DNA from: an uncultured Bacillota bacterium
GTDB lineage: Bacteria > Sysuimicrobiota > Sysuimicrobiia > Sysuimicrobiales > Segetimicrobiaceae
Length of the DNA stretch: 64,000 bases
Reading direction: 5' to 3'
NCBI GenBank assembly: GCA_963804645.1
Contig: CAWDRG010000004.1
Span: forward strand, 32,001-96,000
In this document: piece after piece, positions 3,979 through 29,230 of the stretch
Position numbering within the stretch: position 1 is the stretch's first letter
Layout: every line of letters begins with the position of its first letter
Translations under genes and position numbers: made by a program
The notes under the pieces: model-generated
Told to the model about the DNA's origin: nothing
What the model saw: the letters and a program-made list of their open reading frames with translations, nothing else
The model's database searches: none

Positions 3979-4249
3979 GTTCTTCTCAGCCCGGGGCGTG
4001 CAGTAACTGGGCGCCCCGGGCTGAGCCCTGCGACATTCCACGGTCTTCGTATAGCAGGTTAGTGACGCGTGGACGGTTTGCGATCTTACCTAAAATAAAA
4101 TCGAGATGTGGCTGGCGGAACGCGTGGCTGTCTACGATCAGAAGAGCGGGGGAGCCGCATCGTGCCGGCTCCCCCCTAGGGCTCGAAAGTCCTAGCAAAG
4201 TATTAGCAGGTACCTCGCAAAGCCAGGAGAAGTAAGGCGCTGCACAGTA

Positions 4250-4304
4250 AGCGCCTCTTTGGCGTAGAGGAGGTCGAGGGTTCAATTCCCTCCAGCTCCA
4301 CCAC
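4250..4304 (+). repeat. attR-type duplicate of tRNA-Ala 3' end
   Basis: Identical to 600-654 and lacks the 5' acceptor strand and most of the D-arm. Confidence 0.9.
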
Positions 4305-5556: not shown

Positions 5557-7146
5557 CTACTGGGCGACGATCGCGGCCGTGTACCCCGCCGTGCGCACGC
5601 GCCGCGCGAGGGTCTGCGCGTCCTGCTCAGAGCCGAACACGCCGTAGTGCAGGACCGCGCGACCGGGGGCGAACGACGTGAGCGTCAGTGTCGGCATGAG
5701 CCCGATGTCGAGCATCGCGACGGCGCGGCGCTCGGCCACGACGCGCGGCAGCGGTCCCGAGACCACGAAATAGTGGTGGGGTGCCGGAGGCGCGGCCTGC
5801 CGGGCGCTCGGATGGCGTGCCGTGCGCGGGGCCCGAGCGAAGTGTCTCGTCGAGCGCGCCGCCGCCGGCTGACGCGCGGCAAGGGGAACGTTCGCGGGCG
5901 CCGCCGTGCGTTCGATCGGATCGTGCCGGAACTCCGCGACCACCGCGGGCGCCGGCGCCGGCGTGCCGTGCTGCGGCGGCGCCGCACGCAGCCACCCGGT
6001 GGAGCCGAGCGCAAACCCGGTGATCAAGGCCACCGCGACTGTCGCTACTGGCACGAAGAAGCGGGCTGGCCCCACGGCGCGCTCGCGGACCGCGGCGAAC
6101 GGCACCGCCGTCTCCGACAGAGGGGACTGCCGCCGCGCGCGTGCGTGGTCCGTACGGTACGCTCTCGTCGTCCCGAACAGGCGCCGTTCGGCCGCGTCCA
6201 GGAGATGTTCGAGATCCGCGCCGTCCCCCGGCCAGGTGGCCGTGCCCCACGTCATGCCAAACGGTGCGAGGCTTCCGTCGTCGGTCTCGAGCTCCAAGCG
6301 GCGCAGGCCTAGCGACGCGAGCGTTTTTTGGGCTTCGAGCGCCGTGGCGCCGGTGAGCAGCAGGAGAAACCCGTTCCCGCCGTAGCGGATCGCCAGATCC
6401 TCCGGCCGGATCTCCGCGGCGAGGATTTCTGCGACCCGGAGGGGCACGCGGTTTGCGCCGTCCTCGAACAGCGCCGCTTCATCCCCATCCGTATCCATGA
6501 CCGCGATGGTGAAGCTGCGGTGCGTCCGGGCCGCCTCCGCGACCTCGGCCTCGACGCGGTCGGCAAACGCCCGAAGGTGCGCGACCTCGAGCGTCCCGAC
6601 GTCCTGGGCGAGGCCCGTCAGCGGATTCGCGTCCGAGACGTCCCTGAGGTGCCGGTCGAGATGGCGCGTGACCTCGAGGGCGCCGGCGAGATACCGGCCG
6701 ACCGCGGTCAGGAGCGCCAGATCGGCCTCGCGCAGCATATTCGGGCGGGGACGTCCCACGCACAGCACGCCGACTGGCTGTCCCCGGACCTTGAGCGGCA
6801 CGTACACGGCGCAGCGGATGCGGGCGCCGCCGGCCCCGGCGTCAATTTCTCCACGGGAGACGAGGATGGTCCGGCCCGACCGGAGGACCGTCTCCCAGGG
6901 GCCGCGGTCCGCCGGGATCGAAGCGCCGTCGGCGTCGGCGAACAGCCCCGACGCGGCCCGCACGACGAGGACCTCGTCCGCGTCGTCGTCCAGCATGGCG
7001 GCGGCGCACGAGTCGTAGCCGAGTTCGCTCCGAAGCGACCTCAGCACGGCGTGCAGGAAGTCGGTGAGGCTGAGCGCGGTCGCGGACTCCGCGGCCAAGC
7101 ACTCAAGAAACGTCGCGATCTTGTTGAGTCGGGTCTCTGGCGGCAT
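5557..7146 (-). CDS. GAF + degenerate GGDEF + TM + SPOR-like protein
   Basis: GAF (VPLKVRGQPVGVLCV), GGDEF fold (IRPEDLAIRYGGNGFLLLL, AAERRLF), one TM helix and C-terminal YGVFGSEQDAQTLARRVRTAGYTAAIV (SPOR-like). Start estimated at ATG 7146. Confidence 0.7.
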   Translation of the reverse strand: MPPETRLNKIATFLECLAAESATALSLTDFLHAVLRSLRSELGYDSCAAAMLDDDADEVLVVRAASGLFADADGASIPADRGPWETVLRSGRTILVSRGEIDAGAGGARIRCAVYVPLKVRGQPVGVLCVGRPRPNMLREADLALLTAVGRYLAGALEVTRHLDRHLRDVSDANPLTGLAQDVGTLEVAHLRAFADRVEAEVAEAARTHRSFTIAVMDTDGDEAALFEDGANRVPLRVAEILAAEIRPEDLAIRYGGNGFLLLLTGATALEAQKTLASLGLRRLELETDDGSLAPFGMTWGTATWPGDGADLEHLLDAAERRLFGTTRAYRTDHARARRQSPLSETAVPFAAVRERAVGPARFFVPVATVAVALITGFALGSTGWLRAAPPQHGTPAPAPAVVAEFRHDPIERTAAPANVPLAARQPAAARSTRHFARAPRTARHPSARQAAPPAPHHYFVVSGPLPRVVAERRAVAMLDIGLMPTLTLTSFAPGRAVLHYGVFGSEQDAQTLARRVRTAGYTAAIVAQ

Positions 7147-25233: not shown

Positions 25234-25824
25234 ATGAGAGCCGGTACATGGGTGGCAAGAGTTGCGGGTAGTGCGCTGGCGCTGTGTCTTGCGGTGACGG
25301 GGGCGTGGGGCCAGGCCGTGGCGCCAGAGAGGCTGCCGTATGTGCCCTTTTCCCCGGCCACAGCGTCGTTTGTAATCTTGCCCGGCAGGGCAATCGGCAA
25401 GTGGAACCTGGACGCGAGAATCCCGACCTCGTGGCCCAATTCGAGGCGCAGTACCCTACCATCGGGACCGTGCCGGTGGTGTTCCGACAGGGCAGTGTTT
25501 TCCTTCCATCAGTGGACCGATCCGCCGCTGATCGTGGCTTCGCCGCGGGGCTTCGTGAGCGTGTGGGCACTCGGGACGTACGGCCCGAAGTATAGGACGC
25601 CGGAGAATTTCGGTGAAGGATCGACCGTGGACCAGATCACGGCGGTGTACAAGGACCCGGACTACACAGTCCGCGGTATCACGTACGAGGCACTCATCTA
25701 CAACTCGCTCGGGATCGCGTTTGACACGCCGTGGGATCCGGCGACCAACAACTACGGACTGTCGTGCGGACGACATGGGTGTTCAGGGTCGGGCAAGCGC
25801 AATCGATATTCGAGCGTCCCGTGA
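25234..25824 (+). CDS. Secreted hypothetical protein (PGxxIG-type domain), probably with compensating frameshifts
   Basis: GGAGGAG RBS and signal peptide. An alternative frame at ~25420-25500 reads more protein-like. Confidence 0.55.
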   Translation: MRAGTWVARVAGSALALCLAVTGAWGQAVAPERLPYVPFSPATASFVILPGRAIGKWNLDARIPTSWPNSRRSTLPSGPCRWCSDRAVFSFHQWTDPPLIVASPRGFVSVWALGTYGPKYRTPENFGEGSTVDQITAVYKDPDYTVRGITYEALIYNSLGIAFDTPWDPATNNYGLSCGRHGCSGSGKRNRYSSVP

Positions 25825-25853
25825 ACGGCCCGGTGCTGGCGCGCGGCCACGCC

Positions 25854-25882
25854 TTGACAACAGTCTGGGGGTATGCTTAACT
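25854..25882 (+). promoter_or_regulatory. Sigma70-type promoter upstream of riboswitch/pilT
   Basis: TTGACA at 25854-25859, 17 bp spacer, then TTAACT preceded by TG. The -10 match is weak. Confidence 0.5.
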
Positions 25883-25907
25883 AATCGCAACAGAATAGTT
25901 CCTACGA

Positions 25908-26011
25908 ATCCGTAGGGGCAAACCCGGAGAGATCCGGGGACGCAAAGCCACGGGACAGGCCGGGTACGCCGCAGGGGGGGCGGGACCGGCAAGTCAGCCG
26001 GGTTGTCGGAT
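25908..26011 (+). ncRNA. GEMM-I / c-di-GMP-I-fold riboswitch aptamer (variant)
   Basis: Hallmarks GGCAAAC-stem-GNRA(GAGA)-stem-GACGCAAAGCC ... CAGCCGGGTTG; P1 formed by ATCCG (25908-25912) and CGGAT (26007-26011). Confidence 0.9.
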
Positions 26012-26021
26012 CCGTGATCGG

Positions 26022-26060
26022 GTCCCTCCCGTCTCGTGAATGCTCGGAGGGGCTTTTTTT
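26022..26060 (+). terminator. Intrinsic terminator (riboswitch expression platform)
   Basis: GTCCCTCC...GGAGGGGC stem followed by T7, between the aptamer and pilT. Confidence 0.8.
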
Positions 26061-26166
26061 GTCTCCCCGGAAGTGTGGACGCGGGACGGTCGAAGGCTTG
26101 CGGGTCAAGACAGACATCCGGGCGGATCGCTCGAGACCGAGACGCGCTAGGGGTGCGACACACGCT

Positions 26167-27257
26167 ATGGATATCACCGAGCTGCTGATCATCACGAAGG
26201 AGCGGGACGCGTCCGATCTGCATCTCGCCGTGGGCTCACCGCCGATGCTGCGGGTCAACGGGCGGCTGCAGCGTGTGGACTCGACCGAGGCGCTGACGCC
26301 CGGCGAGGTCCACCGCATGCTGTACGACGTCTTGACGGACGATCAGAAGGCGCAGGTTCGAGGAACGCCACGACCTCGACCTGTCGCTGGAACTCCAGGA
26401 TGTCGCCCGGTTCCGCGTCAACGTCTACAACGATCGATTGGGCGAAGCGGCGGCGTTCCGGCTCATCCCGTCGAAGATTCGGAGCCTCGAGGACCTCGGG
26501 ATGCCGGCGGTGCTCCGGCAGATGGCCGGCAAGGACCGGGGCCTGCTGCTCGTCACCGGGCCCACGGGATCCGGCAAGTCCACCACGCTGGCCGCGATGG
26601 TCGACCTCATCAACACGACGCGCACCGACCACATCATCACCCTCGAAGACCCGATCGAGTTCGTCCACCAGCACAAGCGGTGCATCATCAACCAGCGGGA
26701 GATCGGGCCCCACTGCCGTTCGTTCGAGGCCGGGCTCGTCAACGCGCTGCGCGAGGATCCCGACGTCATTCTCGTCGGCGAAATGCGGGATCTCGAGACG
26801 ATCCAGATGACGCTCACCGCGGCCGAGACCGGTCACCTCGTGCTGGCGACGCTGCACACGAACAGCGCGGCCCAGACGGTGAACCGGATCATCGACGTGT
26901 TCCCGACGCACCAGCAGAACCAGATCCGGGTCCAGCTCAGCGAGGTGCTGCTCGGCGTGCTGGCGCAGTCGCTGGTGGCGCGGCTGGACGACCGCGGGCG
27001 CGTCGCCGCGGTGGAGATGATGATCTGCAATCCCGCGATCCGCAACCTGATCCGCGAGAGCAAGACGTTCCAGATCACGAACGTCATCGACACCGGCGTG
27101 CGAGAGGGTATGGTCAGCCTGGACCACTCGATCAAGGATCTGGTCCGGCGCGGCCTGATCGATCCCGAGTACGGGATGGAGCGGGCGAACGACAAGGAAG
27201 CGTTCCAGCCGACGCCGTCCGGCCAGGTCCAGTCTGGGGCAGGGGCAGCGACGATGA
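26167..27257 (+). CDS. pilT: Type IV pilus retraction ATPase (frameshift near 26355; 3' end ambiguous)
   Basis: MDITELL...ASDLHLAVGSPPMLRVNG, then in a shifted frame RFRVNVY, GPTGSGKSTT, ALREDPD and TLHTNSA. Confidence 0.85.
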
Positions 27258-28361
27258 GCGAGCCGCGCGCTGTGTACGGGCTCGGCGATCTCCTTCGGGC
27301 GATGAAGGAGTCCGATGCGTCAGACATCTATGTCAAGGTCGGGACCGCGCCCACTGCTCCGGATCGCGAACGAGGCGCAGCCCTCTGAGTTCGCCCCGCC
27401 GACACGTGAGGGGGTCGAGGCGATCGTCGCGCCGATCCTGACGGACGTCCATCGGGAGGCGCTGCGCACGATCGGGCACGCGGACCTCGCGTACTCCGAG
27501 ACCAACCTCGGGCGGTTTCGCATCAACGTCTACCAGCAGCGCGGGACCACCGCGCTCGTCGTTCGGCGGGTCCGGTCCGAGATCCCGTCGTTCGAGAAGC
27601 TCAATCTGCCGCCGGTCGTCGGAGAGTTCGCGCTCGCACCCCGCGGGCTGGTGCTGGTGACCGGTCCAGCGGCGGCCGGGAAGTCGACGACGCTCGCGGC
27701 GATGGTCGACTACCGGAATCGCAACCGGCCCGGCCACATCATTACGATCGAGGATCCGATCGAGTATCTCCACACCGATCACATGAGCGCCGTCAGCCAG
27801 CGCGAGGTCGGCACCGATGCCGAGTCGTTCGCGGCCGCGCTGCGCGGCGCGCCGCGGCAGGCGCCCGACGTGCTCGTCATCGGCGAGATGCGCGATTCCG
27901 CCAGCGCGACCGCCGCGGTGTACTTCGCCGAAACCGGGCACCTGCTGCTGAGTACGCTGCACGCGGTCAACGCCAGCCAGGCGCTCGACCGCGTCCTGCA
28001 CATGCTTCCCGGCGACGGCGAGTCGGACATGCAGTCCCAGCGGATGGCGACGATCCTCGTCGGCATCATCTCGCAGCGCCTGGTGCCCCGGGCCGATGGG
28101 ACGGGCGTCGTGCCGGCGGTGGAGGTGCTGCGCGCAACCCCGCGGGTGCGCGAGTTGATCCGCCGCGGCGAGCTCATGCAGCTGCGCCAGACGATGACGG
28201 AGGCGCACGACACGGGGATGCAGACGTTTGATGATGCGCTGTACGGACTGTTCCAGCGCGGGATGATCACGGCGGAAACCTGCCTGGACGCAGCGGAGAG
28301 CCCGAGCGACGTGCGCATGCGCATGCGCGCATTTTCGCCGGTGGGGCGGTCGGCGGGGTAA
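27254..28361 (+). CDS. pilU: Second PilT/PilU-family ATPase (frameshift near 27352)
   Basis: ASDIYVKVG, GRFRINVYQQRG, GPAAAGKSTT, RQAPD, ETGHLLLSTLH and GMQTFDDAL. Confidence 0.75.
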
Positions 28362-28396: not shown

Positions 28397-29230
28397 ATGG
28401 CACGGGGGGAGCACGCGCAGGTGAAGATCCAGAGCGAGGGGATGCCGGCGCCGGAGCCGGCGGAAGGGTCCGAGCCAGATCAGCTGGCTCGATTTCGGGA
28501 GTACCGCCGCACGGGCGAGCGGCGCCTGCAGCAGGAGTTGATCTGCCACTACCTGCCGCTGGTGTCGAAGATCGCCCGCCGGTACGTCCGGCCGGGGGCG
28601 GCGCTCGAAGATCTCTCGCAGATCGGGACGATCGGATTGATCAACGCGGTGAAGACGTTCGATCCCGAGCGCGGGGTGAAGTTCGAGACGTACGCGTTCC
28701 ATCACGTCGCCGGCGAGATCCGGCATTTCCTGCGGGACGGGCTCGAGCCGGTGCGGCGGCCGCGGTGGGTCCGCAAGCGGTACGGCGATCTCGCGGCGGT
28801 CGTCGCGCGGTCGCAGCAGGAGCTGGGCCGGACGCCGACGCTCGCGGAGATCGCGGTGCGGATGAACATGACCGAGGACGGCGTCGCGGAGATCCTGCAG
28901 GCGTACCACCAGGGACGCGTGCGGTCGATCAACGAGCTGCCCGAGGACCAGGAACTCCGGCACGACGTGGCGGTCCGGGAGCCGCACGGCTCCTGGCAGA
29001 CGCTGGTCGAGGACCGGATCGTGCTGCTGCAGGCGATGGACAGCCTCGCCGCGCTCCAGCGGCAGGTCGTGTACTACCTGTACTATCAAGGATTGACGCA
29101 GAGCGAAGTGGCGGTACGCCTCGGGGTGTCCCAGCGGCACGTGTCGCGCCTGCTGGCATCCGCGCTGCGGCGCCTCGCAGGGCCGCTGCGGGCCGCGGAT
29201 CTCGATGCGCGGTCGGTGACCGCGTCCTAG
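28397..29230 (+). CDS. SigB/SigF/SigG-family sigma factor
   Basis: EDLSQIGTIGLINAVKTFDPERGVKFETYA..GEIRHFLRD and TQSEVAVRLGVSQRHVSRL. Confidence 0.9.
   Translation: MARGEHAQVKIQSEGMPAPEPAEGSEPDQLARFREYRRTGERRLQQELICHYLPLVSKIARRYVRPGAALEDLSQIGTIGLINAVKTFDPERGVKFETYAFHHVAGEIRHFLRDGLEPVRRPRWVRKRYGDLAAVVARSQQELGRTPTLAEIAVRMNMTEDGVAEILQAYHQGRVRSINELPEDQELRHDVAVREPHGSWQTLVEDRIVLLQAMDSLAALQRQVVYYLYYQGLTQSEVAVRLGVSQRHVSRLLASALRRLAGPLRAADLDARSVTAS

Follow-up and report, generated by a model that had tools for sequence, protein, structure and literature searches.

In the textbook view of c-di-GMP-I (GEMM-I) riboswitches, position 92 is a fixed C, the Watson-Crick partner of one guanine of the ligand, and A47 intercalates between both ligand bases, while an A at position 20 is the hallmark of cGAMP riboswitches (positions are numbered as in the Vc2 aptamer of Vibrio cholerae, the prototype of Rfam family RF01051). 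G20 contacts the Hoogsteen edge of one ligand guanine (PMC6140456, available in part). The GEMM-Ib aptamers of Geobacter, such as the Gs1761/pgcA leader, have the same overall fold and a single pocket substitution, with position 20 changed from G to A and C92 kept (PMC6140456 and PMC6456294, in their available parts). They are ON switches to judge by the pgcA terminator, and Geobacter possesses the Hypr GGDEF enzyme GacA; the Hypr signature is a Ser (Ser348) replacing Asp (accessible portion of PMC6456294).

Position 92 has also been altered in Vc2, where the mutants C92U (PDB 3MUR) and G20A/C92U (3MUT, 3MUV) have been described, the double mutant binding c-di-AMP with its U92 paired to adenine in 3MUV (PMC9049102 and PMC7288161, both available in part). 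The pocket change in the RNA described here is identical to that of Vc2 C92U. The latter is a laboratory mutant of a gammaproteobacterial aptamer, however, whereas the U92 studied here is natural, is conserved between two species as well as among environmental strains, and is carried by a different scaffold.

Among natural RNAs, family RF03168 (c-di-GMP-I-UAU) resembles our RNA in having U92, A47 and a 3′ consensus 'UGUC', but has U at position 20 where the RNA described here has G. To our knowledge, the ligand of this UAU variant has not been assigned. Likewise, we know of no natural G20/U92 aptamer with a measured ligand preference, and no report of such a measurement was found in the literature searched. 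Here, we describe a natural G20/A47/U92 riboswitch upstream of type IV pilus retraction genes and weigh which ligand it is likely to read.

Results

A c-di-GMP-I riboswitch with U at position 92

The stretch of DNA analysed (64,000 nucleotides, hereafter the window) belongs to genome G000, which is 96.8% complete and not closed; its sister genome, G004, belongs to the same genus. A GEMM-I aptamer is present in the window at 25907..26011 on the + strand. RF01051, whose gathering score is 35, matches it with 58.1 bits (25907-26010, +; E 9e-9), and a purpose-built model, R1, does so with 87.4 bits. The RF01051 alignment, made with Infernal as the first-pass annotation of this DNA had recommended, spans the whole model (positions 1-87 of 87), bearing out the c-di-GMP-I fold claimed in that annotation.

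The P1 helix pairs 25908-25912 (AUCCG) with 26007-26011 (CGGAU), P2 occupies 25918-25943 and is closed by the GNRA loop GAGA at 25929-25932, and P3 (25946-26004) is lengthened by some 21 nt in a manner specific to the lineage. In the pocket, the consensus '...AAaGGCAAA' aligned to UAGGGGCAAA makes position 20 a G, at 25917, and the consensus 'GACGCAAAg' aligned to GACGCAAAG places A47 at 25944, so that the family's G20 and A47 are both retained. The consensus 'GcUgCCgaa', aligned to GUUGUCGGA, places position 92 at 26006, immediately 5′ of the 3′ strand of P1, where the base is U instead of the family's C (Infernal posterior '*' in all three cases). All three bases and coordinates agree with those originally assigned by hand.

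The register of position 92 is secure independently of Infernal, because P1 covaries. In relatives, AUCCG/CGGAU is replaced by CUUUG/CAAAG and further pairs, with three of the five P1 pairs changed on both sides, and the earlier argument that P1 fixes the register is thereby upheld. Over the whole structure, an alignment of 19 sequences, in which A47 is invariant, has 91.5% paired cells, compared to 45% when the partners are shifted by one column, and two-sided changes occur in 15 of 28 pairs, as the three-way junction of this class would have it.

The window RNA thus resembles Vc2 in its three-helix junction, G20, A47, a GNRA loop on P2, P1 as switching helix and its association with motility or pilus genes; it differs in having U92 for C, a P3 extension about 21 nt longer and a receptor other than the 11-nt motif. 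The loop and receptor had been considered further deviations. The P3 receptor region, with which the P2 tetraloop docks in this class, is indeed not the classical 11-nt motif, but the same region is found in C92 orthologues, and the P2 tetraloop of orthologues is GAGA, GCGA or GAAA. Since these features are common to all C92 orthologues and GAGA is an ordinary GNRA loop, neither is a deviation linked to U92. The J1/2 segment of the window RNA is one nucleotide shorter than in the register of the GGC model. Members of RF03168 have U20 together with U92 and score above 65.9 bits; here position 20 is G, and RF01051, not RF03168, is the best clan match at this site. The element is a genuine c-di-GMP-I-type riboswitch, of a known class and with a known kind of pocket variant.

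Genes downstream of the aptamer

The aptamer is followed by pilT (26167..27388, +), encoding a type IVa pilus ATPase of the PilT/PilU family (TIGR01420, 394.6 bits for 26438-27388), and by a second PilT/PilU-family ATPase gene (27315..28361, +; 366.1 bits). Both exceed the cut-off of this NCBIfam model (319.1), in keeping with the pilus-retraction context proposed previously. The last gene of the putative operon (28397..29230, +) encodes a SigB/SigF/SigG-type sigma factor with Sigma70 r2, r3 and r4 domains, whose match to TIGR02980 (E 4.8e-54) lies under that model's own cut-off.

As assembled, pilT is frameshifted by one extra base near 26352 and has four extra bases near 27238 relative to G004, while the N-terminus of the second ATPase gene is in another frame upstream, with one extra base near 27350. 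Both genes (pilT and pilT2) are intact in G004, and the DNA contigs covering the region, from three runs, have one base fewer at 26352/26354; the 26352 frameshift thus probably arose in assembly or is confined to this strain. The differences at 26352, 27350 and 27238 are probably assembly indels, with the consequence that other frames of the assembly may be affected.

Five further genomes of the same genus have a homologous aptamer. In the one whose downstream ORFs were read, G001 (L071:283-2429, -), the gene immediately following the aptamer encodes a SigB/F-type sigma factor; a small MerR-like ORF and another sigma gene come next, and no pilT genes intervene. The sigma factor may be the conserved core target of the riboswitch.

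Elsewhere in the window, a tRNA-Ala(GGC) gene at 579-653 has the same 3′ half as a partial second copy at 4236-4300, which scores 33.5 bits with the Rfam tRNA model and is not called by ARAGORN. The two tRNA 3′ ends, about 3.6 kb apart, could delimit a small integrated element.

A predicted ligand-induced OFF switch

Upstream of the aptamer, a putative promoter (25854..25882, +) consists of a −35 element TTGACA (25854-25859), a 17-nt spacer and a weak −10-like element TTAACT (25877-25882). The TTGACA and ATTAACT blocks are kept in G004 while the spacer has diverged, and TTGACA also occurs in the G001 leader; the two blocks may form a promoter.

Downstream of the aptamer lies the intrinsic terminator that had been predicted (26022..26060, +), in which GUCCCUCC (26022-26029) pairs with GGAGGGGC (26046-26053) in a GC-rich stem of 8 bp with a 16-nt loop, followed by seven U residues (26054-26060). 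A hairpin and U-tract 3′ of the aptamer are also present in all 12 of the other homologous leaders folded. A consensus scanner run on 25500-26400 called no terminator and no + strand promoter; the 16-nt loop exceeds the limit of this scanner, which explains why the terminator was found by reading and folding instead.

An alternative, anti-terminator hairpin of 7 bp (26008..26025, +) pairs GGAUCCG (26008-26014) with CGGGUCC (26019-26025) across a UGAU loop. It has 26008-26011 in common with P1 and 26022-26025 in common with the 5′ arm of the terminator, is unchanged in G004, and is present in minimum-free-energy folds. When P1 was forced in ViennaRNA, the aptamer and the complete terminator were formed, whereas holding the 5′ strand of P1 free produced the 26008-26025 hairpin, with the terminator reduced to a weak remnant. 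By sequence and fold, terminator formation and pairing of the P1 3′ strand in the hairpin are thus mutually exclusive, as in rho-independent expression platforms. Because the hairpin competes with the terminator and uses the 3′ strand of P1, the layout would be that of a ligand-induced OFF switch, a direction predicted from thermodynamic folds only and opposite to that of the Geobacter GEMM-Ib switches.

Two further pieces of data were set aside. The unconstrained minimum-free-energy fold of 25900-26075 did not reproduce the aptamer and was not significantly more stable than shuffled sequences (z −1.73), and an RNA-library contig, X7, which covers 25877-26071 with 90-95% likeness before becoming unlike the window, shows neither a transcript start nor termination.

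U92 is genuine and, among homologous leaders, lineage-specific

Base 26006 is also T in G004, within the same 'GGGUUGUCGGAU' and in a region where the two genomes are 86% identical over 851 bases. It is T again in contigs that span the site from four public runs, three of peat DNA and one of an RNA library; these contigs differ from the window within the P3 extension and downstream of the terminator, and no difference is listed at 26006. This comparison with related genomes, which the first-pass annotation had called for, rules out a sequencing error as the origin of the U at 26006.

Between G000 and G004, the segment 25890-26038 is almost identical, with a few changes that all fall in the P3 extension and in some cases preserve pairing, while the flanks and the synonymous sites of pilT diverge by about 12%. 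Given this near invariance against such a background, the U92 aptamer is maintained by purifying selection.

Position 92 is C in 14 of 16 homologous leaders, including all nine that precede pilT in other genera of the family (L040-L048) and all the homologous aptamers from five further genomes of the same genus (L068-L072). The two leaders with U are those of G000 and G004, which are sister species, so that a single C-to-U transition took place on one branch; among homologous leaders, U92 is lineage-specific. A C in orthologous leaders had been put forward as evidence against the first-pass reading of the site. Such leaders do prevail, yet the U has been kept in G004.

R1 was run on 70 of 73 sequence sources (L005, L006 and L038, being copies or overlaps, were omitted) and aligned 62 aptamers. 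The 55 distinct ones comprised 49 with G20/A47/C92, four with A20/A47/C92 (all from G000) and the two with U92, in a sample biased toward canonical aptamers, since the relatives' loci were top-scoring matches. An R1 match was present in 11 of 29 pilT-like loci; the remainder may be paralogues. An unpublished genome, G034, enters only the tallies across relatives and loci L059 and L327.

These data also bear on the idea that U92 has almost no effect, or a mildly deleterious one, in a leader whose function is fading, leaving the riboswitch perhaps as a relic. As assembled, both pilT genes of G000 are frameshifted by the extra bases at 26352 and 27350, and C92U strongly lowers the response of Vc2 to c-di-GMP (bioRxiv 10.1101/617340, available in part). 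However, both pilT and pilT2 are intact in G004, which has the same U92; the contigs of the three DNA runs do not contain the additional base at 26352/26354; and conservation is far higher in the aptamer and terminator than in the flanking sequence, with pairing preserved by some of the changes in P3. We consider this explanation very unlikely.

U92 probably reads c-di-GMP with a shifted threshold

Since the leader of the same operon is canonical (G20/A47/C92) in nine other genera and in five genomes of the same genus, the simplest reading is that the ligand has stayed the same. Smith et al. (2010) reportedly described U92 as frequent among natural aptamers and as compatible with c-di-GMP binding. 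In V. cholerae, Vc2 C92U loses most of its response and partly regains it upon over-expression of a diguanylate cyclase, according to the available part of bioRxiv 10.1101/617340. A response to raised c-di-GMP suggests that U92 still reads guanine, presumably as a wobble.

We therefore favour, as the probable account, a transcriptional OFF riboswitch that senses c-di-GMP through a G•U contact, with a shifted threshold, and controls a pilT - pilT/pilU - sigB/F-like operon. When the ligand is absent, the 3′ strand of P1 would pair into the 26008-26025 hairpin, which would occupy part of the 5′ arm of the terminator and allow transcription to read through. Ligand bound in the three-helix junction would hold P1 (25908-25912/26007-26011) closed, the terminator (26022-26060) would form and the retraction ATPases would not be made. 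The ligand would most likely be c-di-GMP, with G20 reading one guanine as usual and the second guanine facing U92 in a G•U wobble where a G-C pair is normally formed. Such a wobble would weaken binding, so that a higher concentration of ligand would be needed to fire the switch. We infer ligand identity, affinity shift and switch direction alike.

Sensing of cGAMP by the window aptamer is unlikely

The first-pass annotation had proposed that a G20/U92 pocket accepts or prefers cGAMP. The aptamer would then bind 3′,3′-cGAMP with its G on G20 and its A on U92, whether as a selective sensor or as one that also responds to c-di-GMP; the orientation of the ligand would be reversed relative to the known A20/C92 cGAMP riboswitches, and pilus retraction would come under cGAMP control. 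The pocket chemistry on which this proposal was built is sound. U92 can form a Watson-Crick pair with a ligand adenine, as in the c-di-AMP-bound Vc2 G20A/C92U mutant (PDB 3MUV; PMC7288161 and PMC9049102, in part). At position 92, A-U would be isosteric with the G-C pair usually formed there, so that in chemical terms cGAMP should fit at least as well as c-di-GMP. In addition, cGAMP riboswitches of Geobacter precede pilus-assembly genes (available part of PMC6456294), and the four A20 aptamers of G000 (see below) hint at a dinucleotide other than c-di-GMP.

The genome itself, however, speaks against cGAMP. Among seven PF00990 matches in G000, six have an intact GGDEF motif; all six carry GHxxGD with Asp at the selectivity position, and none (0/6) has the Ser/Thr of the Hypr-type enzymes that the first-pass annotation had suggested looking for. 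No match to the SMODS cyclase family (PF18144) was obtained in this 96.8% complete genome either. A search with the DncV-like family PF21654 also gave no match in G000, but as the control likewise matched no genome, absence is not indicated in this case. Thus, the two marks of a GEMM-Ib riboswitch, A20 and a cGAMP synthase in the same genome, were not found: 25917 is G, and G000 yielded neither a Hypr GGDEF (0/6) nor a PF18144 match, whereas Geobacter has GacA.

The preponderance of C92 among orthologous leaders (14/16) points the same way, as do the occurrence of U92 aptamers in genomes without a Hypr motif (see the next section) and the finding that Vc2 C92U reads c-di-GMP. A biosensor built on Vc2 C92U is also said to remain selective for c-di-GMP (Kellenberger et al. 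2013). Among 41 related genomes, only one real Ser/Thr-type GGDEF was found, in G032, a member of a different family. We thus doubt the cGAMP reading of the G20/U92 pocket, whether selective or dual, and it is unlikely that the window aptamer accepts or prefers cGAMP; a c-di-GMP sensor with a shifted threshold is the reading that we retain.

Pocket variants are not confined to the window. Four of the seven GEMM-I aptamers of G000 have A20 (C10:166818-166897, C10:167950-168029, C10:180033-180113 and C18:10940-11015; L002, L004, L006 and L007); they would represent either c-di-GMP sensing with altered affinity or the trace of an unrecognised cGAMP source. A20 aptamers occur in 7 of 41 genomes of the same order. 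A Hypr DNA pattern had six matches in the 41 relatives, compared to five for the reversed control, and only one of these, in G032, was a real GGDEF. With A20 in 7/41 genomes and a single Ser/Thr GGDEF, pocket variants look decoupled from known cGAMP enzymes in this order. The G032 protein (L339, G032:C15:35978-39006), from another family of the order, has Thr at the selectivity position ('NDRYGHLVGT...RFGGDEF') and is a candidate promiscuous cyclase outside the lineages in which such enzymes are described.

Two paralogous genes, L001:1-1262 (-) and L004:1857-3076 (+), encode near-identical N-termini ('LGRRSARGTWSRVRRDACCAAVIVAL...') and each follows a GEMM-I aptamer, with G20 in L001 and A20 in L004; this looks like a recent duplication with different pocket bases. 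The window also encodes a degenerate GGDEF-like domain at 6175-6573 (-) (G000:C4:38175-38573; PF00990, 38.5 bits), which has no GGDEF motif ('RYGGNGF' instead) and no GHxxGD block, and may serve as a c-di-GMP receptor or be inactive.

U92 aptamers in other bacteria

To see whether G20/A47/U92 aptamers exist elsewhere, we scanned one genome per species with an exact pattern for G20...U92 aptamers and examined the first 80 matches listed. R1 matched 46 of these loci, and 25 of the 46 were true G20/A47/U92 aptamers; the other 21 were rejected as C92 aptamers with a chance GGYTRTC in P3. Because the U92 scan and a corresponding C92 scan comprise only the matches listed, they give no absolute U92:C92 frequency. 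The U92 hosts among the matches listed are Nitrospirota, Acidimicrobiaceae, Solirubrobacterales, Gemmatimonadaceae, Planctomycetales, Salimicrobium, Sphingobium, Rhizobiaceae, Dongiaceae, Neptuniibacter, Pseudomonadales, Desulfuromonadales-type bacteria, Myxococcota and Bdellovibrionales. Given this spread, and with RF03168 already bearing U92, the suggestion that U92 represents a route to altered specificity not seen before is not supported.

The Hypr-motif DNA pattern had no match in the U92-bearing Neptuniibacter, Salimicrobium and Sphingobium genomes, indicating that U92 is not tied to known cGAMP synthases. The same pattern did detect GHLAGS...GGDEF enzymes in two of the U92-bearing genomes, both of Desulfuromonadales type. 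Hypr GGDEF signalling has been described in Desulfuromonadales-type, Myxococcota and Bdellovibrionales lineages, and these lineages seem enriched for U92, making up 9 of 25 U92 aptamers versus 2-4 of 77 C92 aptamers among the validated matches listed (L073-L152 and L203-L282; taxa from record titles). The corresponding Fisher p values (3.5e-5 to 3e-4) overstate the enrichment, because kin are not independent and the counts cover the matches listed only. In five genomes of such lineages, selected for the presence of a U92 aptamer, U92 aptamers coexist with A20 and C92 types: in 28 aligned loci out of 30, which cover part of 61 matches (L348 and L369 overlapped others and were omitted), positions 20/47/92 read GAC 14 times, AAC 9 times, GAU 7 times, and GAA and GAG once each.

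A pocket unable to exclude cGAMP should respond to it in cells that make it, so that dual or cGAMP sensing is a fair hypothesis in those lineages. As a general explanation, that G20/A47/U92 constitutes a second, independently evolved 3′,3′-cGAMP sensor, with the ligand flipped and its A on U92, or a dual sensor, seems to us less likely still than the cGAMP reading of the window aptamer. If true, it would imply an unrecognised cGAMP synthase in the lineage of G000 and cGAMP control of its type IV pilus retraction.

The variation at position 92 also raises the question of whether the pocket recognises some other natural ligand. Candidates would include c-di-AMP, the linear dinucleotides pGpG and pApG, and cyclic dinucleotides of mixed composition. 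Position 92 can be A or G in some Desulfuromonadales-type aptamers, and Rfam holds pocket variants with no ligand assigned (the GGC and UAU families). The window aptamer, however, has canonical G20 and A47 and differs at one pocket base, and no gene context points to another ligand. Moreover, binding of c-di-AMP by Vc2 took both G20A and C92U and was still weak (PMC7288161 and PMC9049102, in their available parts). Such a ligand is the least probable of the explanations that we have weighed, and c-di-GMP remains the ligand that we favour.

Discussion

For annotation purposes, the window element is one more c-di-GMP-I riboswitch, linking the level of a second messenger to pilus retraction in an uncultured high-GC bacterium. 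Its wider bearing lies in position 92, which is U in natural aptamers from at least a dozen lineages among the matches listed. If U92 only lowers affinity, it would provide an evolutionary dial by which different c-di-GMP thresholds could be set within one regulon. If, on the other hand, U92 admits cGAMP, there would be more cGAMP-responsive genes than recognised so far, chiefly in Geobacter-like, myxobacterial and Bdellovibrio-like bacteria.
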